This document shows, one piece after another, positions 16,806 to 34,960 of a stretch of DNA of 64,000 bases. Position numbers and translations under genes: made by a program. The DNA lies in IMG/VR virus record IMGVR_UViG_3300034021_001440, positions 48,419 through 112,418 of that record; one strand, 5' to 3'. Every line of letters begins with the position of its first letter. The first letter of the stretch is position 1. Source of the stretch: a virus. The notes under the pieces were generated by a model. The model was given only the letters and a program-made list of their open reading frames with translations, had not been told where the DNA came from and searched no databases.

Positions 16806-19800
16806 ATGGCGGTCCCGAATCCCCCATTCAACCCAAACAACCGCATTCCAAACGACCCTTTCAACTCTATTAATGTTCCTACCTTTAATACAAGTTTTGG
16901 CCCCATGATCATTGGGTCTGGACTCAGTATTTCCGGTATCGGGAATCCTCAGACTCTTTCCGCTACTGGTGGCGGTGGTGGAGCGGTCAATCAGGTTCTT
17001 GGCGGTGTGGGCATCTCGACGTCCCCATCAACTGGAACCGTATATGTCAATAACACCGGGGTCACCTCGCTGACGGCTGGCTCCGGTATTGCCATTTCTG
17101 CTAGCACTGGCGCCATCACAATCAGTGCTTCGGGTGTTGGCACTGGCACCGTGACCTCCGTTGCTACAGGCACTGGCCTGACCGGCGGTCCGATTATCGC
17201 CAGTGGCACCATCTCTCTGGCAAATACTGCAGTATCCCCTGGCACATATAACTATTCTACCATCACCGTCGATGCTCAGGGTCGTCTGACTGCTGCTTCC
17301 AGTGGTGCTGCTCCCGTAACAAATATTGCGACTGGAACTGGGCTCACTGGCGGTCCGATCACAACCACTGGGACCATCGCTCTTGCCAACACCTCCGTTA
17401 CGGCGGGCAGCTACACCAATGCCAACATCGTCGTTGACGCGCAGGGTCGTATCACCTCTGCCTCAAACGGAACAGCTTGCACTGGCACCGTCACTTCTGT
17501 GGCAACTGGCACAGGGCTGACCGGTGGGACAATCACCACTGCGGGAACGATTGCCCTGGCAGACACTGCTGTGTCCCCCGGTACTTACAACTTTGCAACT
17601 ATAACCGTCGACCAACAAGGTCGTCTCACTGCTGCTTCGACTGGAACTCCTCCAACTCCCGGAAGCACCACGGTTACTTCCCCGATTACTAATAGCGGTA
17701 CTGCCCTCAACCCGAACATTGGTATTCAAACAGCAACCACAGGTCAGCTCGGTGCGGTTCAAGTCGGCAGCAATATTGATGTTTCCTCTGGCGTCATCAG
17801 TGTTGCCTCTACCGTAGGTGTTGCGACTGCGGTTAGCAACCTCGGTGTGACAACAATCACTGACAACGTAACCTCTACCTCTTGCAACAGTGCCCTGTCT
17901 GCGAACCAGGGACGGGCTCTGCAACAGCAGATTAACTCCCTCCTGGTGACAGGGACGGTCGAACTCGCTGGTACCATTGATGGTAGCACAGGTTTTGTTG
18001 CAACAACAACCTCACTGGGGTCTAGCAAAGGCTACACCGTTGGTGCCGTTCTGCCCGCTGCATCCGCAACCACTGTCAACAGCTACGTCATTGTAACAAC
18101 TCCTGGAACAATGACACCTCCTGGCGGTGTTTCCACTGCCGTAACTCGTGGTGACTGGTGGCTGGTGACCCAGTCTTCCCCTGGCGTCTACGTCTGGAGC
18201 TACCTGAACGTTGGTTTCGACCCTCCGATGGCCAGCACAACGACCGCTGGTCTCGTTGAGCTTGCCACGGATGCCGAGACACAAGCGGGCACGAGTGCCT
18301 CTTTGGCAGTCACCCCGGCTGGCGCCTGCGCAACTTATATTCCTTTCACTCAACTGACTGCCAAAGGCGCTCTGATCTCTGCCAGCGGTGCAAACACTGC
18401 TCTGACTGTGACGGTTGGTTCAGATGGTCAGGTTCTGACTGCTTGTTCTGCCTCCCCGAGCGGACTGTGCTGGACTGCTTCTTCGGTTCCCGCCATTCCT
18501 TGCGCTTGCATCACTGCCAAAGGTGATCTGATAACGGGCACTGCGGCAAACACACCCATTGCCCTCCCTGTGGGAACCAATGGACAGATTCTCTATGCGG
18601 ACTCCGCCTGCAGCACGGGGCTGACGTGGGGAACTGCTCCCATCACTTGCCTCGCGTTTGATGCCAAAGGTGACCTTCTGACTGGTTTTGGCCCTGACTC
18701 TTATGGCATTCTGGGCGTTGGCAGCAACGGCTGCGTGCTCGTTGCGTGCTCAGCTTGTGCCCAAGGAATGTGCTGGGGTCGTGGCGTCAACTCTGCCACC
18801 CCGACTTGCGAAGGTATTGTATACGGTTGCACACTGGCAACCGCAACTGCCCTTGGCTGCAACGCTCTGACCACCGGCACCGGTGCCAATAGCGTGGCCA
18901 TTGGTACTCTGGCACTGACCAACAGTGGCGCGGGTACTGACAACGTTGCTGTTGGTTATGCCTCGCTTTGCTGCAACACGACCGGCTCTTGCAACACCGT
19001 TGTCGGCTCTTGTGCCAACTGCCTTGCTACAGCCACAACCGGAAACACTGCTGTTGGTACCAAAGTTCTGAGCTGCAACAACACCGGAAATAACAACACT
19101 GCCGTTGGCTCTCTTGCGCTTCGCGATAATGCTTCGGGCTCCTACAACACCAGCGTTGGCTGGGCCGCTGGATTCAACCTCACCTCTGGCTGCTATAACC
19201 TGGCCCTTGGCATCAACACCTGTCTTCCCAACCCCGCAGGAAACTGCCAGCTGGCCATTGGTTTTGGCAGCGGCACCAACTGGCTGACCGGTGACAGCAG
19301 CAAGCACATTCAACCTGGTGCTGGCATTCGCGACTGTGCCGGTTGTCTCGGTTGCGCTGGACAGTTCCTGTGCTCCACTGGCACTGCCATTCAGTGGGTG
19401 ACTGGTGTGGGTGACACTCCTGTTGGCACCGTAAACTGGTTCGGTGCTGCGACTGCCCCTGTTGGCTGGCTTGTTGCTGACGGTCGTGCCGTGAGCCGCA
19501 CCGCTTATGCTGCCCTCTACGCTGTGATCGGTACCACCTACGGTACTGGTGATGGCACTTCCACGTTCAACCTGCCCGACCTGCGTGCTGTGTTCATCCG
19601 TGGCGTTGATAACGCTGGCGGCACTGCTCGCGGCGTTGACCCAGGTCGTGCGTTCGGTAGTTTGCAGGCGAACTCCGTTCAGTCTCACTGCCACCAAGTG
19701 CAAGTTATCGCGGGTGGTGCTGGTCGCCCTGAGTGGTTGTTCCCCAACAACGCTTGCCCCATTGGAGCCGGATATCCGGCGCCCACTGGTGGTGCCGTCC

Positions 19801-20999
19801 GATCCGCTGGTTTCACAGACCTCACCGGTGGCACGGAAACACGCCCCCTCAACATGGCGCTGTTGCCTTGCATCAAGTACGAAATCACGGTTGCTCCGAC
19901 CACTCCGTCTGCCTGCGGCATCCCCTGCGCCTGCGTGACGGGCAAAGGTGCCATCATCGTGGGAAGCGCCCCGAACACCCCGACCGCTCTGCCCGTCGGT
20001 TTCAACTGTCAGATTCTGGTTGCAAATAGCAACTGTGCGCAGGGTCTGGCCTGGGCGAACCCGCCTGGTGTGAACTATCAGCAGTGTGCGGCTCCTGCCT
20101 TCACAACACCCGTCAACAGCCTCTGTCAGATCGCTGCCATCTCGATCAACACCTTGGGCAACCCTGTGCAGGTCAATGCCTATGGCGATGCCTATAGCAG
20201 CGGGTCCAACTGGTTTGGTTGCGTCTTCATTCGCCGTTGCGGTTCTCCCAACTCGGACTCCCGTTCGTCTTGGCTGGAAAACAATGCGGGCAACATCAAC
20301 GAAGCCTTTGCCCTCTCCGTTATTGACAACCCTCCCGCTGGCACCTATTGCTACGCCCTCATGATGTGCGTCCCGAGTGGATCCGGGGGCAACATCATCG
20401 CTGGCGAAGCCGGTGGTCCGGTTCTCAACGCTGTGGAACTCGGTTCTGCCTGCTACACCAACGCCATTCCTTGCACCGCCATCACCGCCAAAGGCGACCT
20501 GATTGCCGGTGTGGGTATCAACTCCCCCACCGCTCTGCCCGTTGGCAGCTGTGGTGCGGTTCTTCGCCCCAACCCTGCCTGTGCCACTGGCCTGCAGTGG
20601 TGTGAAGTCGGCAAGACTGCCAGCGGCGTTGTCAGCACTGTCAACGTTGCGAACCAGTGGGTCACGATCGATGACATGCAGTTTGGTTTCTGGAACGGAT
20701 TCAAGAGCTTCGTTATGAGGTTGGCACCGGGCTGCGCTTATAGTCTTGGTGCAACTTGGACCAGCTGCTATATTGGCGACGGTGGTGGATTTGGTTCCAC
20801 ATACTATCGAGATCAGACCCTGGTCGCCGGTACTTGGCGATTCATCTGGTGCGACCTGAACTACAGTCAGCACGGCCCGACTCAAAACGCAACCATCTGC
20901 CTGCTTGGCCCCGCTGGCGCCACTCGCATGTATCAGTTCATGGGCATGGTCAGTTCAGCTTACTGCTGCAACCCCATCTCCGTCACTCGCGTCCTCTGA
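16806..20999 (+). CDS. Cys-rich long tail fibre with NTAVG beta-roll repeats and collar domain
   Basis: GTVTSVATGTGLTGGPI and TVDAQGR repeats, NTAVG repeats, FNLPDLRAVFIRG. Confidence 0.8.
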   Translation: MAVPNPPFNPNNRIPNDPFNSINVPTFNTSFGPMIIGSGLSISGIGNPQTLSATGGGGGAVNQVLGGVGISTSPSTGTVYVNNTGVTSLTAGSGIAISASTGAITISASGVGTGTVTSVATGTGLTGGPIIASGTISLANTAVSPGTYNYSTITVDAQGRLTAASSGAAPVTNIATGTGLTGGPITTTGTIALANTSVTAGSYTNANIVVDAQGRITSASNGTACTGTVTSVATGTGLTGGTITTAGTIALADTAVSPGTYNFATITVDQQGRLTAASTGTPPTPGSTTVTSPITNSGTALNPNIGIQTATTGQLGAVQVGSNIDVSSGVISVASTVGVATAVSNLGVTTITDNVTSTSCNSALSANQGRALQQQINSLLVTGTVELAGTIDGSTGFVATTTSLGSSKGYTVGAVLPAASATTVNSYVIVTTPGTMTPPGGVSTAVTRGDWWLVTQSSPGVYVWSYLNVGFDPPMASTTTAGLVELATDAETQAGTSASLAVTPAGACATYIPFTQLTAKGALISASGANTALTVTVGSDGQVLTACSASPSGLCWTASSVPAIPCACITAKGDLITGTAANTPIALPVGTNGQILYADSACSTGLTWGTAPITCLAFDAKGDLLTGFGPDSYGILGVGSNGCVLVACSACAQGMCWGRGVNSATPTCEGIVYGCTLATATALGCNALTTGTGANSVAIGTLALTNSGAGTDNVAVGYASLCCNTTGSCNTVVGSCANCLATATTGNTAVGTKVLSCNNTGNNNTAVGSLALRDNASGSYNTSVGWAAGFNLTSGCYNLALGINTCLPNPAGNCQLAIGFGSGTNWLTGDSSKHIQPGAGIRDCAGCLGCAGQFLCSTGTAIQWVTGVGDTPVGTVNWFGAATAPVGWLVADGRAVSRTAYAALYAVIGTTYGTGDGTSTFNLPDLRAVFIRGVDNAGGTARGVDPGRAFGSLQANSVQSHCHQVQVIAGGAGRPEWLFPNNACPIGAGYPAPTGGAVRSAGFTDLTGGTETRPLNMALLPCIKYEITVAPTTPSACGIPCACVTGKGAIIVGSAPNTPTALPVGFNCQILVANSNCAQGLAWANPPGVNYQQCAAPAFTTPVNSLCQIAAISINTLGNPVQVNAYGDAYSSGSNWFGCVFIRRCGSPNSDSRSSWLENNAGNINEAFALSVIDNPPAGTYCYALMMCVPSGSGGNIIAGEAGGPVLNAVELGSACYTNAIPCTAITAKGDLIAGVGINSPTALPVGSCGAVLRPNPACATGLQWCEVGKTASGVVSTVNVANQWVTIDDMQFGFWNGFKSFVMRLAPGCAYSLGATWTSCYIGDGGGFGSTYYRDQTLVAGTWRFIWCDLNYSQHGPTQNATICLLGPAGATRMYQFMGMVSSAYCCNPISVTRVL

Positions 21000-21008
21000 C
21001 CTGGCAAC

Positions 21009-21016
21009 GGGTAAAA
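21009..21016 (+). promoter_or_regulatory. GGGTAAAA putative late promoter
   Basis: 35 nt before ATG 21044. Confidence 0.65.
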
Positions 21017-21043
21017 ATAAACACATCACTCTTGTAGAAAGCA

Positions 21044-23410
21044 ATGGGTTTGTCGACTCCCTTTAATCCCAACTCCCCCATTCCAAACAACCCATTTTAC
21101 GCTCCGCAGTTTTCCACTATCAACTCCAGCATCGGTCCGCTGATCCTTGGCACCGGTCTGAACATTTCGGCAGTTGGAAACCCTCCCACTCTGAGCACCA
21201 GCGGGGGAGGGGGCGGCGGATCCGTTTCGCAAATCATCGCTGGCACCGGCATTAGTGTGTCCCCCTCGGGCGGTACCGGCAACGTCATTGTCAATAACAC
21301 CGGCGTTCTCAGCCTCGTGGCTGGCACGGGCATTTCCGTGTCGTCTGTGGGCGGTGTCTACACCGTGAACGCCACAGGTGGCGCTGGTACTGTCACCCTG
21401 ATCAACTCTGGCTCCGGTCTGACCGGTGGCCCGATCACCACAAGCGGCACTCTGGCTCTGAACTACGCCTGTGTGGTTGACCCCACCGACTTTACTGGCA
21501 AAGGTGCTATCCTTGCTGGTACCGGTGTGGGCACATACAGTGCTCTGGCTGTTGGCGCAAACGGTCTGGTTCTGACTGCTTGTTCGACCGCTGCCAACGG
21601 CGTTTGCTGGGCTTCGGCAAGCGCGAACGACATTCCCTGCTCCGCGATTACTGCCAAAGGTGCCCTGATTACTGGCACCGGCCCTTCCACCCTGTTCTCT
21701 CTGGGCGTGGGCACCAACGGCCAAGTCCTGACTGCCTGCTCGGCTTGTGGCCCTGGCATGTACTGGACCAACCCGACCGCAGTTGTTCCTGACGCCACCC
21801 CGTCCGTTGAGGGCATCGTCTACGGCATCACCGACGCTGTCACAACATTCAACGTGGGTCTGGGCTCGGACGTTCTGGCTGCTGGTCCGGCGACTGGGCC
21901 TGGCAACGTTGCCATTGGTACTCAGGCTGGATACAATGTCACTTCGGGTCAGCAAAATAACCTCATCGGTGCTGGTGCTGGTTGCGCCATCACCTCTGGT
22001 AATGCGAACAATTTCCTCGGATTCCTGGCTGGTGGTGCTGTAACGACTGGTTCCCAGAATGTTCTGCTGGGCAACAGTGCAGGCAGCTCTTATACAACCG
22101 AACAGGGCAACGTCATCATCGGTGGCAACGCTGGCGTGGCTGGTGTCTGCAACCAAATCCTTCTGTCGGACGGCATCGGCACCCTGCGTCTTCAACTCAA
22201 CCAGTGCGGCGCTATCTCTCCGGACGGTACCACCTACGGTACTGCCGGTCAGGTCCTGTGCTCGGGTGGTCCAAACACCACCTGGGGTTGGACCTCTAGT
22301 TCCACCTCTGAAGCTACCTCCGTCGCTGCTGGCATCATCAAGGGTTGCACCGACAACACCCTTTGTAACTCCTTCTTCGGTTGCTGTGCTGGTCCTGGTC
22401 CCCTCTCTACAGGTGCTTGCAACACTGCTCTGGGATATCGGGCAGGTGCTGCTATCTCGACTGGTAATGTAAACACCATTGTCGGATTTGGGGCTGGTTG
22501 TACCATTAGCAGCGGTAACTGGAACGTCATCATGGGCCATAGTGCCGGTGACTCCATTACATCGGGTGGTTGCAACATTGCCATCGGTGGTGCTGCTGGT
22601 GCATCCATTACCACCACCTGCGAGAACGTTCTGATTGGTGACCTTGCAGGCACTTCTCTGACCGGTCTTCAAAACGTTGGTGTGGGAACACAAGCACTTT
22701 GTGCCGTTGGTGCTGCAAATGCCAACACTGCTCTGGGTCACAACGCGGGTAGCAGAATCACAATTGGTAACTGCAACGTTGCCGTGGGCTATCTTGCCCT
22801 GGGCTCGCCGATAACGACCATCACCGGCAACAACAACGTGTCTGTTGGCGCTGGTAGTTTCAACAGCTTGACCTCCGGTAGTGCCAACATCTCGATTGGT
22901 AATGGAAACAATAACCCTCTGACAACCGGTGGTTGCAACATCAGCATTGGCTCGACTAATGGCCTGCCAGCTGCAAACACCTGCTACACAACCATCATCG
23001 GAAACGGCATCGTTGCCACGCAAAGTTGCCAGGTGATTATTGGATGGGTGACCGGTGGAACTTGTGCCTCCTTTGTCAACGGCTCGCTCAACTGGACCGT
23101 GAGCTCTGATGCTCGAATGAAGGATAAGGTCGAAGACTTCACCGAGGGTCTTGAACTTATTGAAAAACTTCAACCCCGGAGCTATAACTTCATCGGCGGT
23201 TGCGAAGAGGGTGACGAAGGCGTTCCTGCTTTCGGCCTCATCGCTCAAGAAGTGGCTGAAGCCATTGCCGGAACCAGTGCTGAGGGTCGCGGTCTGATTG
23301 GTGGAACGGAAGAAAACGGATACGGAATTACTTATCCTCAGCTTATCATTCCTCTGATCAACGCTGTCAAGGAATTGTCGGCCCGAGTGAAAGAACTCGA
23401 GTCCAAATGA
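21044..23410 (+). CDS. Cys-rich tail fibre with C-terminal intramolecular chaperone (peptidase S74) domain
   Basis: NxAIG repeats; SSDARMK autocleavage motif, FGLIAQEV, LINAVKELSARV. Confidence 0.8.
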   Translation: MGLSTPFNPNSPIPNNPFYAPQFSTINSSIGPLILGTGLNISAVGNPPTLSTSGGGGGGSVSQIIAGTGISVSPSGGTGNVIVNNTGVLSLVAGTGISVSSVGGVYTVNATGGAGTVTLINSGSGLTGGPITTSGTLALNYACVVDPTDFTGKGAILAGTGVGTYSALAVGANGLVLTACSTAANGVCWASASANDIPCSAITAKGALITGTGPSTLFSLGVGTNGQVLTACSACGPGMYWTNPTAVVPDATPSVEGIVYGITDAVTTFNVGLGSDVLAAGPATGPGNVAIGTQAGYNVTSGQQNNLIGAGAGCAITSGNANNFLGFLAGGAVTTGSQNVLLGNSAGSSYTTEQGNVIIGGNAGVAGVCNQILLSDGIGTLRLQLNQCGAISPDGTTYGTAGQVLCSGGPNTTWGWTSSSTSEATSVAAGIIKGCTDNTLCNSFFGCCAGPGPLSTGACNTALGYRAGAAISTGNVNTIVGFGAGCTISSGNWNVIMGHSAGDSITSGGCNIAIGGAAGASITTTCENVLIGDLAGTSLTGLQNVGVGTQALCAVGAANANTALGHNAGSRITIGNCNVAVGYLALGSPITTITGNNNVSVGAGSFNSLTSGSANISIGNGNNNPLTTGGCNISIGSTNGLPAANTCYTTIIGNGIVATQSCQVIIGWVTGGTCASFVNGSLNWTVSSDARMKDKVEDFTEGLELIEKLQPRSYNFIGGCEEGDEGVPAFGLIAQEVAEAIAGTSAEGRGLIGGTEENGYGITYPQLIIPLINAVKELSARVKELESK

Positions 23411-23434
23411 GTTGAATAAAACTTGAACGCACAC

Positions 23435-23497: not shown

Positions 23498-26400
23498 ATG
23501 GGATTGCCGACGCCCCCCTTTAATCCAAACACCCCAATCCCAAACAATCCCTTCCAGAGCCCTCAAACATACACTGTCAATGGTCTAAGTGGCCCCACGA
23601 TTGTTGGTGATGGTCTATATGTTGACTATGCCAATCTATCAATCAATTCCTCCGGCTCCCTAATCACTGGCATCATTGCCGGTTTGGGCATCAGTGTTTC
23701 AAGCACGGTTGGCAATATCACAGTCAGCAACACTGGTGTTCTCAGCCTGAACGCTGGACCTGGTATCAGCATTTCCGGGTCTACAGGAAACATCACAATT
23801 AGTTCCACAGGTAGCGGCAGCGGCACGGTCACTAGCATCACTGCGAGTACAGGACTTACTGGTGGAACCATTACCACAAGTGGGACTATAGCACTGGCAA
23901 ACACTACGGTGAACGCTGGCAGCTACACTTTTGCTTCGTTTACGGTAGATCCGCAAGGTCGTCTAACCGCAGCAAGCAATGGTTCCGTACCCACTGCAAC
24001 TCCTACGACCTTAGGGTTGACTTTTGCAGGACCTGGTGACCTTATTACAGGTAATAGCTCTACCGGATATTGCGCTCTAAGTTCAATACCATCAGTAACA
24101 ATTTCAGAACGCAACACAGCGTTAGGTGTGCTGGCTCTCAGACTTCTCACCAATGCCGTGGATAACACAGCAGTTGGTTACTCGGCTCTTAACTCGAACC
24201 TCATAGGGAGTTACAACACCGTTATTGGTTCCAATGCTGGTTTTAGCGTAACTGGATCAAAAAACGTTGTTATCGGTGCCTACGTCAATCCTGCGAACGT
24301 CGCAGGGAACTGTCAACTTGCTATTGGACCTTCTGGTGGTTTCTGTTGGCTCACAGGTAACAGCACTCTAGCTATTAAACCAGGCGCCGGAATCATTGAC
24401 TGCGCCGGTTCCTGCGGAACCGCTGGTCAGGTTCTGATGAGCAACGGCTCGAACGCCATTTGCTGGGGGACTGTGGCTGCAGGCAGCGGCATTCCTTGTG
24501 CTTGCATCACAGCCAAAGGCGCTCTTGTCACAGGCACCGCTGCCTCAACTCCGGTTGGTCTTACCGTTGGAACCGACGGTCAAGTTCTGACAGCCTGTGC
24601 AGCTTGCACGACAGGTTTGACTTGGGCTGCCGGTGGTGGCGGTGGAAGTGGCACAGTGACCGACATCACTGCTGGCACCGGACTTACGGGCGGCACAATC
24701 ACAACGTCTGGAACCGTCGCTCTTGACACCGCCTGCGTTATTCCGCCTACGGCTTTCACACAGAAAGGCGAAATGCTAATTGGTACAGGAGCTGGTACGT
24801 ATACTGTGGTGGCCCCGGGAACACCCGGTCAGTACCTTACTTACACCAGTCCAAAAGTCGGTTGCAATGCCATATGGACGGACCCGGTGGGGGTTGCAAC
24901 ACCTGGTGATCTTGGTTTGGGTTACGGTTTCTACGACACCTCCACCTCTCCCAATAGCATGGCCGCAGGGCAAGGTTCCTTAGGCAACCTTATTGGAGGA
25001 GATAGTAATACGGCCCTGGGTTTTCAAGCTCTTGTAAACTTAAGCACCGGGTCTCGAAATATTGGTCTTGGGTTCTGTGCCGGAAGTGGCCTAACTACTG
25101 AGACAGACAACGTCTTAATTGGATCTTCAGCAGGTAACTTTGACACTCTCACTCAAACAGTAGCTATCGGCTCTTATGCGGGAACAAAAGCAACAAATAG
25201 CGTCTTCATCGGTTACTGTGCGATTCAGTTCGGTCTCAGAAGCTGCAATTCCGTCGTAATCGGCGCCAATGCACTAAACGACAACGCATACACAGGTTGT
25301 CAGCTTGTTGCTATCGGACCTAACGTTTCTATACCTGCTTTCAACACCAGCTGCCAACTTGCTATTGGTTTCTCTGCCACTGACAATTGGCTCACCGGTG
25401 ACCCCACCAAAGCCATCAAACCCGGTGCTGGTATTATCGACTGTGCCGGTTCCTGCGGAACCGCTGGTCAGGTTCTCTCTTCAACGGGAACGAACAATAT
25501 CCTGTGGGCTTCTGGCGCTGCTGCTGCTGCTGCAACTCCGAATAGTTTGGGCACTATTTACGGATGTACTACTACCACATCCAACTCTTTTCTCGGGTAC
25601 CGTGCTGGAACCTCTCAAACCGACAACTGCCGAGCTACCTTGGTGGGGAGAGATGCTGGATTCCTTTTAACGACGGGTGACGGTAACACCGGTGTAGGTA
25701 GCACCGCATTGTGTAGCGTAGTGACGGGTTGCTTTAACACCGCCGTCGGTGACAGAGCAATGCAACGTGCCGGATCGGTAGCTCAAGCAAATACCGCGCT
25801 CGGAGTAGTTGCTCTTGAGGATGTTACAGGTGCTTATAACGTAGCTCTGGGTGTTGAGGCTGGTCTCCAGCTCCTTGCTGGAAACTGCAACGTGTTTTTA
25901 GGTGCCGTTGCCGCCCGAGACAATACATCGGGTAACAGAAATGTTGTTATTGGCCCAAATACCACCACCTCTACCTTAACGGTTAGCTGCGAGCTTGTTA
26001 TCGGGTATAACGCAGGTCAAAACTGGTTGACGGGTGATAGCACCAAAGCCATCAAACCCGGTGCTGGTATTATCGACTGTACAGGTTCCTGTGGTACTGC
26101 GGGTCAAGCTTTGCTGAGTGACGGTGCTAACGCAGTTTGCTGGGGATCCGTAAGTGCTGCTAAAGCCTGCCCGACGACACTCGGAACGGTGTATGGATAC
26201 GTGGGCACAAACGTTAAAACCGATGCCAGCATAGGTATCGGCCTATGTTCCATGGTGTCGTCCACTCCAACGAACACCCCAACCAACGCAGCATTGGGTT
26301 TTGGCACTCTTTGTTCTCTGACTACCGGCGGCGGTAACGTCGCAATGGGTTGGCGCGCTCTCGTTACGATGACGACTGGTAGTGGAAACACTGTGGTCGG

Positions 26401-27208
26401 TGCTCAGGCTGGTACCGCAGCGAGCGGGACTGAAAACGCGTTTGTAGGGAGTCAGTCAGGGTGTCAGGTAGCGGGCAACCAAAACTCATTTTTTGGAATA
26501 TGCTCAGGAGCCACTCAAGTCAGCGGCGACAGCAACGTGGCAATCGGTTTTCGCACCGCACTGGCTAGCACCACCGGAAGCTGCCAACTTGCCATCGGTT
26601 TCTCTGACACTGAGAATTGGCTGACTGGTGACAGCACCAAGGCCATTAAACCCGGCGCTGGAATCATTGACAGCACTAACGTGTGTGGCACGGCAAACCA
26701 AGTTCTGGTCTCCACAGGCGCCAACGCAATTCAATGGAAATCAGTCAACTCGGCACTGGCCGTGCCGAACTACGGTTCATTCAACAGTACAACCACGCAG
26801 ACTGTCGGTACCATCAACGTCGGACAACCTATTACACTCAGCACAGTCTCAGCCACTGGCTTCTCAATCGTTGGAGGAAGCCAAATCACAGCAGCCTCAG
26901 CTGGCACATACAACATCCAAATCTCCCTTCAAATAATCTCCACGAGTGGTGGTGGTGGCCTCGTCGAAGTCTGGTTTGTTAAAAATGGCACGGCTATCAC
27001 TAACTCAAACACTCGTTACTCGGTCAAAAACGCCAACGAGGAGGAAGTGGCCGCACTCAACCTCGTCGAGACTCTCACTGCTGGTCAAAACATTCAAGTC
27101 TACTGGGCCAGCGACAACGTCAATATGACCTTGGCAACACTTACAAGCACCATGGGTGGCCCCGCCATTCCGTCAGCCATTGTGACTGTCGTTCCGGTTG
27201 GAGCCTAA
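23498..27208 (+). CDS. Cys-rich tail fibre with four internal repeat modules and a C1q/TNF-like C-terminal domain
   Basis: Four copies of C(Q/E)L(A/V)IG...WLTG...AIKPGAGIID; C-terminal YGSFNSTTTQ...AGTYNIQISLQ. Confidence 0.75.
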   Translation: MGLPTPPFNPNTPIPNNPFQSPQTYTVNGLSGPTIVGDGLYVDYANLSINSSGSLITGIIAGLGISVSSTVGNITVSNTGVLSLNAGPGISISGSTGNITISSTGSGSGTVTSITASTGLTGGTITTSGTIALANTTVNAGSYTFASFTVDPQGRLTAASNGSVPTATPTTLGLTFAGPGDLITGNSSTGYCALSSIPSVTISERNTALGVLALRLLTNAVDNTAVGYSALNSNLIGSYNTVIGSNAGFSVTGSKNVVIGAYVNPANVAGNCQLAIGPSGGFCWLTGNSTLAIKPGAGIIDCAGSCGTAGQVLMSNGSNAICWGTVAAGSGIPCACITAKGALVTGTAASTPVGLTVGTDGQVLTACAACTTGLTWAAGGGGGSGTVTDITAGTGLTGGTITTSGTVALDTACVIPPTAFTQKGEMLIGTGAGTYTVVAPGTPGQYLTYTSPKVGCNAIWTDPVGVATPGDLGLGYGFYDTSTSPNSMAAGQGSLGNLIGGDSNTALGFQALVNLSTGSRNIGLGFCAGSGLTTETDNVLIGSSAGNFDTLTQTVAIGSYAGTKATNSVFIGYCAIQFGLRSCNSVVIGANALNDNAYTGCQLVAIGPNVSIPAFNTSCQLAIGFSATDNWLTGDPTKAIKPGAGIIDCAGSCGTAGQVLSSTGTNNILWASGAAAAAATPNSLGTIYGCTTTTSNSFLGYRAGTSQTDNCRATLVGRDAGFLLTTGDGNTGVGSTALCSVVTGCFNTAVGDRAMQRAGSVAQANTALGVVALEDVTGAYNVALGVEAGLQLLAGNCNVFLGAVAARDNTSGNRNVVIGPNTTTSTLTVSCELVIGYNAGQNWLTGDSTKAIKPGAGIIDCTGSCGTAGQALLSDGANAVCWGSVSAAKACPTTLGTVYGYVGTNVKTDASIGIGLCSMVSSTPTNTPTNAALGFGTLCSLTTGGGNVAMGWRALVTMTTGSGNTVVGAQAGTAASGTENAFVGSQSGCQVAGNQNSFFGICSGATQVSGDSNVAIGFRTALASTTGSCQLAIGFSDTENWLTGDSTKAIKPGAGIIDSTNVCGTANQVLVSTGANAIQWKSVNSALAVPNYGSFNSTTTQTVGTINVGQPITLSTVSATGFSIVGGSQITAASAGTYNIQISLQIISTSGGGGLVEVWFVKNGTAITNSNTRYSVKNANEEEVAALNLVETLTAGQNIQVYWASDNVNMTLATLTSTMGGPAIPSAIVTVVPVGA
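25405..26080 (+). repeat. exact 40-nt direct repeat (25405-25444 and 26041-26080) within the fibre gene
   Basis: CACCAAAGCCATCAAACCCGGTGCTGGTATTATCGACTGT occurs twice. A 32-nt exact repeat also links 24404-24435 and 25445-25476. Confidence 0.85.
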
Positions 27209-27209
27209 C

Positions 27210-27217
27210 GGGTAAAA
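27210..27217 (+). promoter_or_regulatory. GGGTAAAA putative late promoter
   Basis: 34 nt before ATG 27244. Confidence 0.65.
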
Positions 27218-27243: not shown

Positions 27244-28680
27244 ATGACGGTAACCAGTGTACTTACGGGGGTGGGGCTCACAGGTGGTCCGATTACATCA
27301 ACCGGCACCATCAGTTTGCTTCCCCCTGTTGGAGGAAACATCGGCGGCGTAAAACCAGGCGCAAACGTTATTATCGCCTCAGACGGCACAATCAGCGTTG
27401 CCCCTCCCAACCCTGGCACCATCACTGGCGTCTCGGTTGGCGGGGGCTTGGTTGGCGGGGGCACCACTGGCACCGTGACCGTGGCGGTGAACTTTGCCTC
27501 TCCCGCTGAAGTTGCCGCAGGCATTGTCAACTATAAGGCAATCGCCCCGAGCTCCCTGTCTGCGAAGCAAGGCAGCCTCACCGAGTCAGGCTTCGTCCAG
27601 CTTTCAGACGCTTATGCCTCTGTCGACTCCACTCGGGCGGCAACACCCACCGGCGTCAAGGCAGTCTATGACATTGCCACGGCGGCACTGCCGAAGTCCG
27701 GCGGCACGATGACTGGTGTCATCAACTTTGCTGCTGGGCAAACTTTCCCTGGCACGGCTTTCCCGATTGCCACCCCGTTGTCTCTGGGTGTTATCAAAGT
27801 TGGCTCTGGCTTGAGTGTCAACGGCTCGGGTCTGGTCACCACCGTCAACAATGGCACCGTGACTGCCATCACCCCTGGCCCTGGCCTGGGTGCTCCGGCA
27901 ACCGGCAACGTGATCACCAATACCGGCACCATTCGCCTGCTGCCCCCGACCACTGACGGTCTCACCCTGGGCGGTGTGAAAGCGGGTGACAACATCAACA
28001 TTGCCAACGACGGCACCATCAGCGCAGAAGGGTTCCTTCTCACGAACAACCCGTATGCCTATAACAGCTACATCTTCCCGCCTCCTGCGGTTCCTTCGGC
28101 TGCTCCTGGCCTCAACGGTTCTTTCTTGCGTTTGAAAAATCGCGTCACTGGTGAAGTGGAGTGGGCAACGAACAATGGCATCACTTCGATCACAGCAGGC
28201 ACGGGTCTGACCGGAGGCACAATCACCTCCACAGGGACAATCGGTCTGGCAACCACAACCGTGATTCCTGGCACGTATGGCGCCACCGGGCTGATCTCCA
28301 CTTTCACCGTGGATTCCCTGGGTCGCGTCGTTGATGCTGGTGAGGCCAATCCTTATGCCCCGTTCCAAATTGCGACGCAAAGTGCTCCTCCCAACCTTGT
28401 GCTGGACTTTGCAGACAACAACCTGAACTGGACCTGGACGATGCTTGCCAACACGGTGATGCAAGCTCCGCAAAATGCCCAGAGTGGTCAGCGTGGAAGC
28501 ATTTTGATCATTCAGAATCCCACCGTGCCCAAGGTGCTCACCTGGCAGGCCAACTGGAAATGGGCCAATGCAACTCCCGTGATGATCACTGCGGTGGCAA
28601 GTGCTCGTGATATGTTTGAGTTTGTTGTGATTGACTCAACGAACATTCTTATCACTAACGTCATCAAAAACTACGGCTGA
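27244..28680 (+). CDS. tail fibre-like protein (Cys-free)
   Basis: GLTGGPITSTGTI, GGVK.G.N..I..DGTIS and ALPKSGGTMTG repeats. Confidence 0.75.
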   Translation: MTVTSVLTGVGLTGGPITSTGTISLLPPVGGNIGGVKPGANVIIASDGTISVAPPNPGTITGVSVGGGLVGGGTTGTVTVAVNFASPAEVAAGIVNYKAIAPSSLSAKQGSLTESGFVQLSDAYASVDSTRAATPTGVKAVYDIATAALPKSGGTMTGVINFAAGQTFPGTAFPIATPLSLGVIKVGSGLSVNGSGLVTTVNNGTVTAITPGPGLGAPATGNVITNTGTIRLLPPTTDGLTLGGVKAGDNINIANDGTISAEGFLLTNNPYAYNSYIFPPPAVPSAAPGLNGSFLRLKNRVTGEVEWATNNGITSITAGTGLTGGTITSTGTIGLATTTVIPGTYGATGLISTFTVDSLGRVVDAGEANPYAPFQIATQSAPPNLVLDFADNNLNWTWTMLANTVMQAPQNAQSGQRGSILIIQNPTVPKVLTWQANWKWANATPVMITAVASARDMFEFVVIDSTNILITNVIKNYG

Positions 28681-28708
28681 TTTACTCTCCCTCCCACTCC
28701 GCTAAACT
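28680..28708 (+). promoter_or_regulatory. early-type promoter ATTTAC-N17-TAAACT
   Basis: Same pattern as seven other promoters in the metabolic region. Confidence 0.55.
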
Positions 28709-28742
28709 GATAGCGGTATACCACCCCAACCTTTACCTACCA

Positions 28743-29675
28743 ATGGCAGATAAAAAATACTGCATCTTCCAAATTCAAGGCGGACTTGGAAAGCACGTTG
28801 CAGCGACGGCAGTCGCCCAAGTCATCAAGAAGGCTCACCCGGATCGCGAACTGATTGTCGTATGCGCCTGGCCTGAACTCTGGACGAGTCTCCCATTTGT
28901 TTATCGCGTATTTCCTCTGGGAAATACTCAGTATTTTTACGAAGAATATGTGGAAGGCAAGGACTCCCTGATCTTTGCCCAGGAGCCATACTTCACCACC
29001 ACCCACATTAACAAGACTCATCGCCTGGTTGAAACCTGGTGCATGATCTATGGTCTGAAGTATGACGGTGAGCAACCGGTTCTGAAAATCAACCCCGAGC
29101 AGCGCAAGACCATTCGCAACTTCTATGAACCGAAGTTCGAAGGCAAGCCGCTGATGCTCATCCATACGAACGGCGGTCTGTTTCAGAACGAGCGTCCCTT
29201 CTGCTGGAGTCGGGATATGCCCATCGAAGTGGCACAAAAAGTCTTCAACCACTTCAAGAAAAGTCACACCGTGATGCAAATCACCCGCCCTGCTTCGCCG
29301 CAGATTGAGGGTGCTTTCATTCGCAACGAGCCTCTCTCCAACACGGAACTGGCTGGTTTGGTGGAGTTTTCTGACAAGCGCCTCCTGATTGACTCTTCGC
29401 TTCAGCACATGGCTGCTGCGTTCGGGCTGCCTTCCACCGTGCTCTGGAATGCCACTTCGTCTGTGATCTTTGGTCACGCGATGCACGACAACATTCAAGC
29501 CAAAGAAAAGCCGCAGAAGTCTCTGCCTGGAAGCTATCTCTTTGACTATCAGTTTGATGCCAACGAGAATGAGTTTCCGTATGAGGACGACGACCTCAAA
29601 AATCTCTACGACCTTGACCGCATCATTGCGTCGCTGGAAAAGCAAACCAATGAGGTGAAGAAGGGTTTCGCATGA
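28743..29675 (+). CDS. glycosyltransferase (GT-B fold, GT9/heptosyltransferase-like)
   Basis: GGLGKHV N-terminal motif; IDSSLQHMAAAFGLPSTVLW matches the GT9-type DS..HxAAA...P pattern. Confidence 0.7.
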   Translation: MADKKYCIFQIQGGLGKHVAATAVAQVIKKAHPDRELIVVCAWPELWTSLPFVYRVFPLGNTQYFYEEYVEGKDSLIFAQEPYFTTTHINKTHRLVETWCMIYGLKYDGEQPVLKINPEQRKTIRNFYEPKFEGKPLMLIHTNGGLFQNERPFCWSRDMPIEVAQKVFNHFKKSHTVMQITRPASPQIEGAFIRNEPLSNTELAGLVEFSDKRLLIDSSLQHMAAAFGLPSTVLWNATSSVIFGHAMHDNIQAKEKPQKSLPGSYLFDYQFDANENEFPYEDDDLKNLYDLDRIIASLEKQTNEVKKGFA

Positions 29676-30466
29676 ACCGCTTCGTGTTTCTTGCTGGGCT
29701 GCCTCGCACAGGTTCCACTGTGCTTGGCGCCCTTTTGAATCAGCACCCGTTTCTGTATCCAACGGAGACGTCGATGGTTCACCGCCACATTCACGAAGTT
29801 TCAAACTTTTTTGTAGGAGAGTATCCTCTCTACGACACGAACGACCCCAACTCACCCCTGTGGGGAATCGTGAGAGGTATTCTGCAAGGGGCGTATGAAC
29901 ACGTCAAGGGGAAAGTAGTCATTGAGAAAAGCAGGGGGTGGTCGTGGGAAATCGACATCCTGAGAAAGGCTTTGGGGGAGCCACCCAAGTTCGTCGCCAC
30001 TGTGCGGTCCATTCCCGAAATTATCTCTTCTTTCATCCTCCTGGCCAATAAAATTGGCGATGACTCAAAGATTCATACACAGTTGAGGGAGACAGGTTAT
30101 CCCATAACCACCTGGAACCTGTCGCACTTCATCTGGGAAAAGTACATCGATGCTGACTGGCAAGGTTTCCGTCAAGCATACGAAACAAACACTGACTTGT
30201 TTCACCTGATTGAGTACGACGACCTTGTGCAAAAACCTGAGGAAGTTCTCAATAATTTTTATTCTTTTATTGAGGTGCCTCCCATTAAAGTTCACACGGA
30301 CTCCCTTGTGCGCGGTGCCGTCGAAAATGACGATGCCTTTGGGTTGCCAGGACTGCACGACATCCGCTCAGACTTGTCTCGCACTTCTCCCCCCGCACTT
30401 GAAGTTCTCGGAGAAGAGTGCTACAACTTTTGGGAGGCTCAGCGCCTGGAATTTTGGCGAGGGTAA
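29672..30466 (+). CDS. PAPS-dependent sulfotransferase
   Basis: 5'-PSB loop GLPRTGST, EKSRGW, VRSIPEIISS (3'-PB), IEYDDLV..PEE. Confidence 0.85.
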   Translation: MNRFVFLAGLPRTGSTVLGALLNQHPFLYPTETSMVHRHIHEVSNFFVGEYPLYDTNDPNSPLWGIVRGILQGAYEHVKGKVVIEKSRGWSWEIDILRKALGEPPKFVATVRSIPEIISSFILLANKIGDDSKIHTQLRETGYPITTWNLSHFIWEKYIDADWQGFRQAYETNTDLFHLIEYDDLVQKPEEVLNNFYSFIEVPPIKVHTDSLVRGAVENDDAFGLPGLHDIRSDLSRTSPPALEVLGEECYNFWEAQRLEFWRG

Positions 30467-30468
30467 AA
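30461..30468 (+). promoter_or_regulatory. GGGTAAAA putative late promoter containing the upstream stop codon
   Basis: 30 nt before ATG 30491. Confidence 0.65.
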
Positions 30469-30490
30469 TCTAAAAAAGATTGTCACATCA

Positions 30491-30985
30491 ATGGCTGCGC
30501 TCAATTTCCCAACCTCACCAACACCGGGTCAGCTGTATCCAAGTCCAGCAATCTCTGGTGTGTCGCAATACCAGTGGGACAACACTGCTGGTGTGTGGAA
30601 CACCGTTGCCACTTTCGTGAAGCTCAATAATCAAAGTGCGTACAACAGTTATGTTTGGCCAGTCGCAGACGGTCTGGCTGGGCAGCAACTGGAAACGGAC
30701 GGTTCCGGGAATCTGTACTGGGATGCCGCTTCGAATCCGACCTTCTTCTATCTGCAACTGGACAGTTCAGTTCCGTTCGACGGAATTCAAACAATTTTCA
30801 CCCTCATCGATCCTGCCACACTCAACGCCTACTCCCCGACGCCAAACTCCAACATCGAGGTTTTCCTCGGCGGTGTTCCTCAGCAGTTTGGCACAGCCTA
30901 CACCGTGGCTGGTTCGACAATTACCTTCACCAACCCGCCCATCGCAGGCACTTCGTTCTTTGCGACAACCGTCATTCAAGGGTAA
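30491..30985 (+). CDS. small virion structural/adaptor protein
   Basis: LNFPTSPTPGQLYP N-terminus, AYNSYVWP module, and a VFLGGVPQ repeat shared with 6947. Confidence 0.65.
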   Translation: MAALNFPTSPTPGQLYPSPAISGVSQYQWDNTAGVWNTVATFVKLNNQSAYNSYVWPVADGLAGQQLETDGSGNLYWDAASNPTFFYLQLDSSVPFDGIQTIFTLIDPATLNAYSPTPNSNIEVFLGGVPQQFGTAYTVAGSTITFTNPPIAGTSFFATTVIQG

Positions 30986-30987
30986 AA
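30980..30987 (+). promoter_or_regulatory. GGGTAAAA putative late promoter containing the upstream stop codon
   Basis: 36 nt before ATG 31016. Confidence 0.65.
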
Positions 30988-31015
30988 GCAGTCAAGTGTA
31001 ACTGACGAATTAACT

Positions 31016-34000
31016 ATGGCGTTAACTCGCGCTCAACTACTGATGGGAAATTGCGCACAGGGATGCGTACTTCCTGGTCAGGTTCAAGGCGTAAAACAAG
31101 GCGCTGGTGTTTGTATCGCTAACGACGGTACAATCTCTTTCTTTGCTGGAACTTCCACAGGCGTAGTCAAAACCAATAATCCTACGGCTTTCAATAGCTA
31201 CATCTGGCCCAATGCCGACGGCATCGCTGGCTCTCAGCTGACGACTGACGGCCTGGGCAACCTCGCCTGGGGTCCTGCTCCGGGCGACCTCTTCATCAAA
31301 CTGCAACCGACTTCCACCCAGACTGGCGCGTTTGCGAACATCACCGGTCAGGCTGGCTGCGTGGCGATGACTTTCATCGCGGCGCCGAATCAGTTTGCGA
31401 TTCAAACCTGCGACGGTGACGCAAGCCTCTTCGGTGTGACCGCTGGCCGTGGTTCCGGTTGCGTGGCGACCAACACTGCTTTCGGTGCTTGCAGCCTCTT
31501 TACAAATACGACTGGAAACAGCAACACAGCCATCGGCTACAAAACGCTGTGCTCCAACCAGGTCGGCAACTGCAACACTGCAATCGGCTTCTGCTCCCTT
31601 GTTTCCAACTCGGCAGGATGCCTCAACACTGCGGTCGGCTATCAGAGTCAGACCTTCACTTCGACCGGAAACTGCAACACTTCGATCGGTTTCTGCTCAC
31701 TCTACAATAACACCAACGGCGGTTGCAACACTGCCGTCGGTAATGAAACTCTTTATTGCAACACCAGCGGTCTGTGCAACATCGCCGTCGGCCCTCGTGC
31801 TCTGTACTGCAATGTGAGCGGCTGCTGCAACATTGCTGCTGGCCTGTGCGCTCTGCAAAATAATACCACAGGATGCAGCAACCTGGCGATTGGTGCCTTT
31901 GCTTCCAACTGCAACACGATTGCCTGCTTCAACTTTGCCATCGGCGACTGTGCCCTGTTCAACAACCAAACGGTTGGTTGCAACATGGCGATCGGCTGCA
32001 AGGCGATGTTCTGCACGACCATCGGTACTCGCAACCTGGCCATCGGTACTTGCTCGCAGTATAACACCACAACCGGTTGCTATAACACGACCCTCGGTCA
32101 CTGCTCGATTGGACGCGGTGTGAACGCTGGCTGCTGCAACGTGGCTGTTGGCTTCTGCTCTCTGTTTGAAAACACAGCCGGTCTGTGCAACATTGCCATC
32201 GGTCAAGAGACCATGGCCTGCAACACCTCCGGTTGCTGCAACATTGGCGTGGGTGCCTTTGCCCTCCGCTCGAACTCTTCTGGCTGCTGCAACATCGGTA
32301 TCGGTTCACAGGCTCTGTGCTGCCTGACCACCGGTAGCTGCAACGTCGGCGTGGGAACTTTTGCCCTCTGCGGCAACACCGCTGGTCTGTCCAACACTGC
32401 TGTTGGCGACAGTGCAATGCAGAATAACAACACCGGTTGCTTCAACGCGGCTGTTGGTTCTGACTCCCTGTGCTGCATTGTGAGCGGTTGCTATAACACC
32501 GCTGCTGGCTCTTGCTCGATGGTCAATACCACGGTTGGAGCTTCCAACGTGGGTGTTGGTTTCCGTGCAATGGAGGCCAATCAGGACGGTTCTTGCAACG
32601 TGGCTGTTGGTCAGTGTGCTCTGGGAGCTTCTTCGACAGCTGACTGCAACGTTGTTCTGGGCTTCGAGGCTGCAGCGGATAACTGCGGAAATCGCAACGT
32701 TGTGATTGGCCATCAGTCCGGCTTCAACGGTGGTGGCAATCCTTCGGACAACGTCATCGTCGGTGCTCTTGCTGGCTGCAGCATGACGACTGCCTGCTGT
32801 GTGACCCTCGTCGGTGCGTGCGCTGGACAGACCATTACAAACGGTGACTTCAACACTCACATCGGTGCCCTGGCTGGTTTTGGAACCAACTACACTGGCG
32901 TCTGCAACTCTTCGCTTGGTTTGCGTTCTCTCTGCGCACTGACCACTGGCGCCTGCAACACTGCCGTTGGTGCGGATGCAATGTGCTCGGCAACGAGCGG
33001 TTGCCTCAACGTGGCAGTGGGTAATCAGAGCCTGCAAAGTTTGGTCTCAGCCTGTGGAAACACTGCACTGGGTCAAACGGCAATGCAAAATGCCGTCAGC
33101 GGCTGCTTCAACGTTGCCGTCGGTACTTGCTCGCTGATCAACAATGCTTCCGGTTGCTACAACACCGTTGTTGGTGTGGAAGCTGGCGGTGCTGGCGGTG
33201 CAAGTTTCTCTTGCGCTACATTCGTTGGTTTCAACGCTGGCGTTGCGGCCACCACAGCTCAGCTGGCGACGGCGGTTGGTTGGTGCTCCGCTGCCAACTT
33301 GAGCACTGGAAATTGCAACACTGCTGTTGGTGCTTGCAGCATCTTCAACCTGAGCACCGGTTGCTTTAATACAGCGGTTGGGAACAACGCCGGGGTTAGC
33401 CTTACCACGGGTGGGTGCAACACTGCTATTGGTTTCAACGCTCTTTGCAGTGCTGCGAGCACAGACGCAAACACCGCTGTTGGTTGGTGTTCAGCAGCCT
33501 CTCTGACGACCTGGCCAAACACTGCTGTGGGCTTCAGGTCCCTGACCACAATGGCCACGGGACAATACAACACGGCAATTGGCACCGGGTCTTTGCGTGA
33601 CTTGGCTTCTGGTGTCAACAACACCGCCGTGGGTGATGGGGCTGGTAAGTGTCTTGCCTCTGGTTCGTGCAACACTCTTATTGGCTCAAACACCGGGCAG
33701 CTTGCTGGTTCGAGCTTCAACAATGCCACTCTCGTAGGTAATGGGGCCGGAGCTAATCTTTCGACAGCGCCTCTGGCAACTGCTGTTGGTTTCTGTGCTG
33801 CTCAAGCTCTTAGTACTGGACTCTACAACACTGCCGTGGGTGGTTGTGCCTTGTTCAGTCTCACATCCGGTAATCTCAACACCGCAGTGGGCATGAACGC
33901 CGGTAAAAACATGACCACGGGGTGCTACAACACTGCGTTTGGTCAGGGAGCCCTGAGAGACGTAACAACGGCCAACCAGAACACAGGTTTTGGAACCGGG

Positions 34001-34960
34001 GCTCTTCGTCAACAAACCGGGGGATGCAACACTGCAGTGGGTGCCAGCTCCGGTCAAGGTCAACCGGGATCCACTGGTGCTTGTAACACCACTGTTGGTT
34101 ACTTTGCCGGTTCCTGCATCACGACTGCCACTGGTGTCTCAGCCATGGGATGGTGCGCCGCCTGTTCTGTTTCTACAGGACTGAACGCAACGGTTTTTGG
34201 ATCTGAAGCTGGATGCACTCTCTCAACTGGTATCAACAACACTCTAATTGGCCAACGCGCTGGTTGCGCAATAACCACAGGAGCCAGTAACACTGCGGTT
34301 GGTCAAGCCGCTGGTAAAGAAGGTATAGGAGGAACAAACAACGTTTTGATGGGAGACAACTCCGGTCGTTGTATGACGGGCGGTAACTTCAACTCCGTAC
34401 TTGGGTCTCAAGCCTTTAATGGTGCAACTGGTTCTACGCCTAACAACCTGGGTCAGTTCAACACGGCCCTTGGCTATCAGGCCATGGGTATCTTCACGGG
34501 TGGGAATAACAACATTGCCATCGGTTATGCATCTGGCTATACTTTCTGCAACCTGGCGGGCCTCAACAACCAGATTGTGATGGGTAATGCCTCACATACC
34601 AATGCCTTCATTCAAGTCGCATGGACGGTTGTTTCCGACGAGCGCAAGAAAAAGATCAAAGGACCCGTGGCTCTCGGCCTGGACTTTGTCAAAAACCTTG
34701 AACCCATCGAATACCAGTTTATCGACGAAGAGACTCAAGAGATCAAAGACGAGACATACCGTTATGGTTTCTCAGCTCAAAAGGTTCGTGCCCAGGAAGT
34801 TGACCCTGAGCATCCGGTGATTGTGGGTGGCTCGGATGAAAAAGGTTGGAATCTTACCACCGACTACATGTTGCCGCCTCTGGTCAATGCCATTCAAGAG
34901 CTCTCTGCTCAAGTTGAAGAATTGAAAGCAAAACTTGCTGCCCTCGAGGGTAAAAATTAG
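31016..34960 (+). CDS. very Cys-rich beta-roll tail fibre with C-terminal S74 chaperone
   Basis: Dozens of roughly 17-aa CNTAVG repeats; VSDERKK, YGFSAQ, LVNAIQELSAQV. Confidence 0.8.
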   Translation: MALTRAQLLMGNCAQGCVLPGQVQGVKQGAGVCIANDGTISFFAGTSTGVVKTNNPTAFNSYIWPNADGIAGSQLTTDGLGNLAWGPAPGDLFIKLQPTSTQTGAFANITGQAGCVAMTFIAAPNQFAIQTCDGDASLFGVTAGRGSGCVATNTAFGACSLFTNTTGNSNTAIGYKTLCSNQVGNCNTAIGFCSLVSNSAGCLNTAVGYQSQTFTSTGNCNTSIGFCSLYNNTNGGCNTAVGNETLYCNTSGLCNIAVGPRALYCNVSGCCNIAAGLCALQNNTTGCSNLAIGAFASNCNTIACFNFAIGDCALFNNQTVGCNMAIGCKAMFCTTIGTRNLAIGTCSQYNTTTGCYNTTLGHCSIGRGVNAGCCNVAVGFCSLFENTAGLCNIAIGQETMACNTSGCCNIGVGAFALRSNSSGCCNIGIGSQALCCLTTGSCNVGVGTFALCGNTAGLSNTAVGDSAMQNNNTGCFNAAVGSDSLCCIVSGCYNTAAGSCSMVNTTVGASNVGVGFRAMEANQDGSCNVAVGQCALGASSTADCNVVLGFEAAADNCGNRNVVIGHQSGFNGGGNPSDNVIVGALAGCSMTTACCVTLVGACAGQTITNGDFNTHIGALAGFGTNYTGVCNSSLGLRSLCALTTGACNTAVGADAMCSATSGCLNVAVGNQSLQSLVSACGNTALGQTAMQNAVSGCFNVAVGTCSLINNASGCYNTVVGVEAGGAGGASFSCATFVGFNAGVAATTAQLATAVGWCSAANLSTGNCNTAVGACSIFNLSTGCFNTAVGNNAGVSLTTGGCNTAIGFNALCSAASTDANTAVGWCSAASLTTWPNTAVGFRSLTTMATGQYNTAIGTGSLRDLASGVNNTAVGDGAGKCLASGSCNTLIGSNTGQLAGSSFNNATLVGNGAGANLSTAPLATAVGFCAAQALSTGLYNTAVGGCALFSLTSGNLNTAVGMNAGKNMTTGCYNTAFGQGALRDVTTANQNTGFGTGALRQQTGGCNTAVGASSGQGQPGSTGACNTTVGYFAGSCITTATGVSAMGWCAACSVSTGLNATVFGSEAGCTLSTGINNTLIGQRAGCAITTGASNTAVGQAAGKEGIGGTNNVLMGDNSGRCMTGGNFNSVLGSQAFNGATGSTPNNLGQFNTALGYQAMGIFTGGNNNIAIGYASGYTFCNLAGLNNQIVMGNASHTNAFIQVAWTVVSDERKKKIKGPVALGLDFVKNLEPIEYQFIDEETQEIKDETYRYGFSAQKVRAQEVDPEHPVIVGGSDEKGWNLTTDYMLPPLVNAIQELSAQVEELKAKLAALEGKN
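34948..34955 (+). promoter_or_regulatory. GGGTAAAA putative late promoter
   Basis: 31 nt before ATG 34979. Confidence 0.55.

Follow-up and report, generated by a model that had tools for sequence, protein, structure and literature searches.

The viral DNA analysed here (the window) is 64,000 nucleotides long and forms the final 64 kb of a 112,418-bp IMG/VR viral contig (IMGVR_UViG_3300034021_001440; CheckV completeness estimate ~51%). Its tail-fibre genes include four with products extremely rich in cysteine (Cys), and among these lie genes for a glycosyltransferase (GT) and a sulfotransferase (ST). The two enzymes are encoded among fibre genes, and hundreds of aquatic phages share the enzyme-fibre pairing, which raises the possibility that the virus decorates its own fibres chemically. 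The reading put forward here, tentatively and with somewhat less than even confidence as a whole, is that of a fibre-decoration cassette coupled to fibres striped with thiols. Late in infection, while the fibres fold in the cytoplasm, the GT would attach a heptose-type sugar to their exposed side chains, the acceptor being Ser, Thr, Asn or Cys itself, and the ST would sulfate that sugar, with carbamoylation taking place in other phages. The Cys stripes would be selected as a composition, not as fixed sites, and would supply surface thiol chemistry after release. Decoration and stripes would be functionally coupled, and the cassette evolutionarily coupled to fibres with many surface thiols.

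The 16806–34960 block is part of a phage tail-fibre supermodule, and the fibre genes, named here by their start positions, form a single plus-strand run from 6.9 kb to 40.3 kb of the window. Gene 16806 (16806–20999) encodes a modular tail fibre of 1397 amino acids (aa) with a Collar domain and phage fibre repeats, whose 54 Cys (3.9%) all lie past residue 224. The tail fibre of gene 21044 (21044–23410; 788 aa) has 25 Cys (3.2%) and a C-terminal Peptidase_S74 intramolecular chaperone (39.9 bits; Pfam threshold 22), and that of gene 23498 (23498–27208; 1236 aa) has 35 Cys (2.8%). Gene 31016 (31016–34960) encodes a beta-helix fibre of 1314 aa and roughly 50 coils of 17 aa, with 87 Cys (6.6%). The last of these is residue 1178, ahead of the Peptidase_S74 chaperone at residues 1207–1265 (30.6 bits), so the hand count of about 87 Cys with none in the chaperone, made in the initial annotation of this DNA, was exact. 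Against a mean of 0.98% over all other open reading frames (ORFs) of the 112-kb contig, the excess in the four fibres has binomial P values from 5e-7 to 4e-43. Sister fibres carry very few Cys: 5 in 12425, 2 in 14778, none in 27244 and 1 in 38021. The initial annotation had singled out the same four fibres and, as nearly Cys-free, the last three of these sisters, and every string that it compared was located (IPKTILAAKG, ILTVDDTKPLGVDW and QTHTH in 14778; IPCACITAKG, VLTACSASPSGLCW and QSHCH in 16806; GCCNIAAGLC in 31016). Judged from their sequences, the Cys-rich and Cys-poor fibres are true paralogues assembled from common modules. The further statement that mostly polar residues give way to Cys is correct for the 17-aa repeat (S/N/Y/T/Q), but in other modules Cys also stands opposite V, I, A, L or T of the Cys-poor paralogues.

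Several other features belong to the same run. A fibre at 35139–37982 (947 aa) has 10 Cys, all within residues 600–900, and is intermediate between the Cys-rich and Cys-free paralogues. A small Cys-free protein of 164 aa is encoded on the plus strand at 30491–30985 and corresponds to the N-terminal fibre module common to 31016 and 38021. At the DNA level, this module occurs at 30491–30985, 31016–31300 and 38021–38320; it heads the two long fibres and stands alone as 30491, possibly as an adaptor or as a decapitated fibre. A diversity-generating retroelement or recent duplication was considered as the source of the Cys and dropped, because DNA repeats between modules are only 60–82% identical.

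The two enzyme genes follow the Cys-free fibre 27244 (27244–28680; 478 aa). The GT gene occupies 28743–29675 on the plus strand (310 aa), and the ST gene, on the same strand at 29672–30466 (264 aa), starts within it, overlapping the GT stop by 4 nt. A GGGTAAAA box occurs in 17 plus-strand copies in the window (1896–59902), where 1.7 would be expected. The ten copies that were checked (at 11873, 14736, 16773, 21009, 23465, 27210, 30461, 30980, 34948 and 37985) lie about 25–50 nt ahead of a fibre gene start, and every fibre gene from 11927 to 38021 has one. The copy at 27210–27217 (plus strand) lies ahead of 27244 and the next is at 30461; no box was found before the GT or the ST, and no terminator-like site between 27244 and the GT. 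The fibre 27244, the GT and the ST are therefore read as one late-type unit, with GGGTAAAA as a putative late promoter.

In its AlphaFold2 (AF2) model (predicted local distance difference test score, pLDDT, 86; predicted template modelling score, pTM, 0.86), the GT has a GT-B fold with two Rossmann-like lobes. Foldseek matched this model to 3tov, a GT9 enzyme (E 1e-12, TM 0.60–0.65), WaaF (1psw), WaaC (2gt1, 2h1h and 6dfe) and TibC (4rap), all with probability 1.0. A nucleotide-sugar motif, IDSSLQH...LPSTVLW, is largely conserved among GT homologues. The Pfam family Glyco_transf_9 scores 12.5 bits, below the gathering cut-off of 22 (16.1 bits for the homologue at locus L046), with the C-terminal motif region alone aligning, and the best sequence match in the PDB is to WaaC at only E ~1. 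By modelled fold, the protein is a GT-B, GT9-like (heptosyltransferase-like) enzyme, in line with the GT-B glycosyltransferase first annotated here. The other enzyme of that annotation, an ST dependent on 3′-phosphoadenosine-5′-phosphosulfate (PAPS), is recovered by Pfam as Sulfotransfer_3 (50.2 bits; cut-off 27). Its residues 4–34 align to the PAPS loop region of the tyrosylprotein sulfotransferases TPST1/2 and residues 75–203 to the CurM ST, but these nearest solved relatives do not fix the acceptor class.

A GT relative is present on each of 282 viral contigs, and counts were made on the best 80 loci; because these loci are phylogenetically related, the counts overstate independence, and the control set is small. 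An ST homologue lies within 10 kb of the GT in 71 of the 80. The order is ST-(DUF7936)-GT in 61 loci, and the GT-ST order of the window occurs in 8. Next in 57 of the 61 comes an ORF of 540–620 aa, taken as a carbamoyltransferase by length and composition and confirmed by Pfam for L046 only. In the fibre-like protein nearest upstream, the median Cys content is 2.7% (at least 2.5% in 28 of 52) and the maximum 5.3% (95 Cys in 1783 aa), compared with medians of 1.1% for other upstream fibres and 0.28% for large downstream proteins at GT loci. Comparable fibres have 0–1.1% Cys in six phages with no detectable GT homologue (Synechococcus phage S-CBWM1, Methylophilales phage Venkman, Manatee Spring podovirus, roseophage CRP-1, Synechococcus phage S-B05 and a 462-kb uncultured phage). 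A search with the L050 fibre gave only five further loci, all on incomplete contigs and uninformative as a control. Phages of four very different groups, a 31.6-kb podovirus among them, keep the order of fibre and then GT. The GT comes right after the fibre in pelagiphages HTVC111P and HTVC112P; the HTVC111P fibre (gp52) belongs to the repeat family (1.5% Cys) and is directly followed by a distant GT homologue (gp53). The co-occurrence of fibre Cys content with this GT family, raised in the initial annotation as a check, is thus positive, and the association is real at present sampling depth.

The large T4-like cyanophages P-SSM2, S-SM2 and S-SSM7 carry ‘LPS gene’ clusters, named for lipopolysaccharide (LPS), with function given as unknown (PMC3037559). 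In P-SSM2 (NC_006883.2; 20796–23662), the paralogues PSSM2_304 and PSSM2_306 are each 355 aa long with 36 Cys (10%) and many CC/CCC runs. Fibre genes are their neighbours, and a distant GT homologue (PSSM2_307), a Nol-like carbamoyltransferase and HldE follow just downstream. The window phage belongs to another, S-CBWM1-like lineage, and its Cys-rich proteins are long beta-helix shafts instead of 355-aa proteins. Its half-genome contig has the ST, whereas no carbamoyltransferase, DUF7936 or heptose-activation gene was found on it.

The source contig also encodes a tail sheath, baseplate wedge, portal and large terminase. Its best cultured match is Synechococcus phage S-CBWM1, and since the large terminases share 54% identity, the source is classified as an uncultured S-CBWM1-like (Aokuangvirus-like) myovirus, which is probably a cyanophage. 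Megablast of the region against the phage collection gave no match. Within this lineage, an ST is absent from the sequence covered at all six of the closest GT loci, and visible fibres of the related contigs G002 and G004 reach 2.8–3.5% Cys. Side observations were made on some of these genomes. At 37168–43689 of the source contig, before the window and upstream of the terminase, are genes for two proteins, one of 1739 aa with 29 Cys (1.7%) and one of 423 aa with 12 Cys (2.8%). In loci L007 (1598–2422) and L008 (9073–9951), the 27244-type fibre is separated from the GT by an extra ORF (274–292 aa; N-terminus MQPRIYTYK.TFEEIPHWYWGVHKEK), which may be a mobile endonuclease-like gene. S-CBWM1, in whose genome no GT homologue was found, encodes a phosphoheptose isomerase (GmhA) and a sugar-1-phosphate nucleotidyltransferase at 6058–7139. 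In Pelagibacter phage HTVC111P (the 31.6-kb podovirus; 231–6870), a ‘toxin-activating lysine-acyltransferase’ gene stands directly before the tail protein, repeat fibre and GT homologue, and may encode a second fibre-modifying enzyme.

In the main rival explanation, the GT and ST act on the host envelope and alter one of its glycans (LPS, exopolysaccharide or S-layer sugar), for example in superinfection block or progeny release. The fibre-gene location would then be a hypervariable island, and the abundance of Cys a separate feature that fibres have in oxic water. The classical GT9 enzymes are LPS core heptosyltransferases, the cyanophage homologues are described as LPS gene clusters (PMC3037559), free glycans are the substrates of NodU/NolO-type carbamoyltransferases and NoeE-like sulfotransferases, and the tail apparatus of cyanophage Pam3 has disulfides without any GT (PMC9942802). 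This explanation is nevertheless harder to square with the fibre-then-GT order in four very different phage groups, among them a podovirus of 31.6 kb, and with the position of the GT and ST inside a late-type fibre unit without a promoter box of their own. Moreover, an unrelated trait would not predict that GT-negative phages with comparable fibres are Cys-poor. Host-glycan remodelling is therefore considered unlikely, though it keeps a substantial claim, at perhaps one chance in several.

The placement of the Cys also speaks for the proposal of fibre decoration. The repeat unit of 31016 comprises 17 residues, G-x-x-N-T-A-V-G-x-x-A/S-L-x-x-N-T-T. In 34 exactly spaced coils, Cys occupies positions 2, 3, 10, 13 and 14 (and once position 9), and conserved positions are never Cys. 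The same positions are variable in 2271 coils of Cys-poor homologues, where they hold mostly S, N, Y, T, Q and R. Among 992 independent coils from fibres of other viral contigs, Cys is found only at positions 2, 3, 9, 10, 13 and 14, and in rare cases at 16 or 17. The repeat belongs to a very large family (>5000 matches), whose 120 best homologues have a median of 0.14% Cys, and the 12 with at least 2% have it at the same repeat positions. Since relatives vary at these positions and have polar or charged residues there, the Cys probably point outward, on the surface and not in the core. The placement in 31016 gives three thiol stripes along the shaft.

An AF2 model of residues 150–560 of 31016 (pLDDT 82.7) is a beta-solenoid with one main strand (T5-A6-V7) per coil. 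The VIA-align matches of this model are mainly single-chain parallel beta-helices, which include the tail protein of Staphylococcus phage Andhra (Z 20.6), the tailspike of cyanophage Pam1 (Z 19.2), TibC-glycosylated TibA (Z 15.1), and further phi29 gp12 and pertactin. The highest sequence identities (19–23%) were to trimeric-autotransporter heads, BpaC at 23% and UspA1 at 19%, with high root-mean-square deviation. Foldseek returned weak leucine-rich-repeat or solenoid matches only (TM ~0.2). A Pfam scan of the window proteins gave no YadA_head/Hep_Hag match (PF05658 was found in one homologue), and PDB sequence searches with the fibre gave no match of any kind. A related-locus search with 31016 alone as the query found no relatives, and the A1 alignment contained no usable conserved stretch.

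A model for the proposed action of the GT is offered by the heptosyltransferases TibC and AAH, which act on the beta-helix adhesins TibA and AIDA-I (PMC4358343; PDB 4rap, 4q1q). In both cases a GT9-related GT-B enzyme is encoded beside a long, repetitive beta-helix adhesin or fibre, and the likeness extends to the models, with the fibre aligning to glycosylated TibA and the GT to TibC. TibC and AAH modify exposed small side chains along the helix in the cytoplasm, and the same is proposed for the phage fibres. The substrate would here be a virion fibre, and the ST and carbamoyltransferase partners are new.

Several points weigh against fibre decoration as proposed, in addition to the relatedness of the loci and the small control set. 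Bacterial autotransporter heptosyltransferases (BAHTs, the TibC/AAH class) have an N-terminal beta-barrel, a beta-hairpin thumb along with a four-Cys iron finger (PMC4358343). The window GT is shorter than TibC (310 vs ~406 aa), and its model begins with a Rossmann-type strand (residues 6–11) and helix (15–31); it contains four Cys in total, none of them an invariant column among 29 homologues. With neither the N-terminal barrel nor the conserved iron finger in the model, the GT is not placed in the BAHT class. Its best structural matches are LPS-type GT9 enzymes, and LPS cores are the usual GT9 substrates. The conserved gene before the GT in the window lineage is the 27244-type fibre, with 0–1 Cys (L005, L007 and L008 orthologues), and visible fibres have no more than 0.8% Cys in the GT-positive G003, L004 and L005. 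The nearest fibre is likewise below 1% Cys in 9 of 52 marine loci. Cys-rich neighbours are therefore no requirement for the GT. Finally, no gene of a nucleotide-heptose pathway, which would supply ADP-heptose as the putative donor, and none of a PAPS pathway was found on the half-genome contig. Fibre glycosylation in this phage may occur, and is offered as a proposal only.

Sequence comparison of the Cys-rich fibres bears on what the thiols might do. In pairs at 50–60% identity, 38% of Cys are conserved against 61% of residues overall, and at 60–70% identity 45% against 72%; the Cys thus behave like other variable surface residues and are less conserved than average. A single Cys is present in 411 of the 992 coils from other viral contigs. 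In 31016, the motifs CxC (0 observed, 5.9 expected), CxxC (1 and 5.5) and CxxxC (1 and 5.0) are depleted, while CxC, CxxC and CC are at expectation in other Cys-rich fibres. No strong pair coupling was found in the coils, the sole reproducible signal being that Cys at 9/10 and Cys at 13/14 exclude each other (P 0.017 for 31016; odds ratio, OR, 0.61, P 0.007 in the 992 other coils). Taken together, low conservation, single-Cys coils, weak coupling and motif depletion make it seem likelier that selection acts on many thiols along the variable face than on particular sites.

These results bear directly on a further explanation, in which the stripes either bind metal ions (Fe, Zn or Cu) or serve as a fixed scaffold of disulfides, like that of Cys-stapled beta-helical antifreeze proteins, and the enzymes are irrelevant. 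Many coils do combine one Cys at position 2 or 3 with one at 10 or 13/14, the 9/10 and 13/14 exclusion fits such an arrangement, and sister modules contain HxH metal motifs (QTHTH, QSHCH). Cys-stapled beta-helices have conserved, paired Cys in each coil, whereas here Cys conservation is below average and so many coils hold one Cys. Nor do the fibres have the CxC, CxxC or CC excess of metallothionein-like or CxxC metal/redox sites; in 31016 these spacings are depleted, pair coupling is not strong, and the total of 87 Cys is odd. A fixed disulfide scaffold or set of metal sites is unsupported, weakened because the positions change fast and there is no CxC/CxxC excess, and this explanation is judged improbable. 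The post-lysis disulfide or metal lattice suggested in the initial annotation is, as a fixed architecture, weakened in the same way, although opportunistic cross-linking through fibre Cys may occur. Under the decoration proposal, the simplest thiol chemistry after release would be irregular disulfide cross-links between coils or chains in oxic water. In cyanophage Pam3, tail-protein disulfides matter for fibre attachment and triggering (PMC9942802). Pam3 resembles the window phage as a cyanophage myovirus with Cys in tail proteins, but it has a few defined Cys at the fibre-wedge joint, whereas each chain of the Cys-rich window fibres has tens of Cys, distributed along the shaft at positions that change fast.

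A more specific alternative makes the Cys thiols themselves the acceptors, with the GT9-like enzyme forming S-linked (sulfo)heptose or hexose on the fibre surface, as in the (sulfo)glycan coat of the initial annotation. The enzymes, their co-occurrence with Cys-rich fibres across lineages and the probable exposure of the Cys agree with that idea; the acceptor role itself agrees poorly with a GT whose conserved operon partner in the window lineage has 0–1 Cys, and with nearest fibres below 1% in 9 of 52 loci. Variable, probably exposed and interchangeable positions are what would be expected of sites recognised on a folded beta-helix. The three Cys contexts of the 31016 repeat, however, share no sequon, and comparison with Cys-poor coils gives no specific replacement of Ser by Cys. 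Cys also necessarily ladder along a solenoid, an arrangement that the initial annotation itself named as counting against its interpretation. The only well-known bacterial system of Cys S-glycosylation is that of the glycocin S-glycosyltransferases (SunS/ThuS type), and known S-glycosyltransferases are GT2 enzymes (GT-A fold), not GT9. Those enzymes act on small peptides, and the modelled GT is GT-B and GT9-like, not of the glycocin type. Given that Cys and Ser are isosteric, acceptance of Cys by a Ser-type enzyme would be plausible. Ser is the only acceptor of TibC, and Thr is not modified (PMC4358343); on these grounds Cys acceptors are judged doubtful, yet worth some weight. An S-linked heptose on the Cys stripes, then tailored by the ST (elsewhere also by a carbamoyltransferase), is held to be similarly doubtful. 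If true, it would give virion fibres a glycosidase-proof anionic coat, and would mark a first both for S-glycosylation by GT-B/GT9 enzymes and for S-glycosylation of virus particles.

Tail fibres set the host range of a phage and the survival time of its particles in water. The cyanophage homologues of the GT have so far been discussed only as ‘LPS genes’ (PMC3037559). If the reading of a fibre-decoration cassette is true, thiol-lined fibres that abundant aquatic phages glycosylate and sulfate themselves would bring a further level to host recognition and to the stability of the particles, and would perhaps also bear on how marine viruses interact with metals and oxidants.

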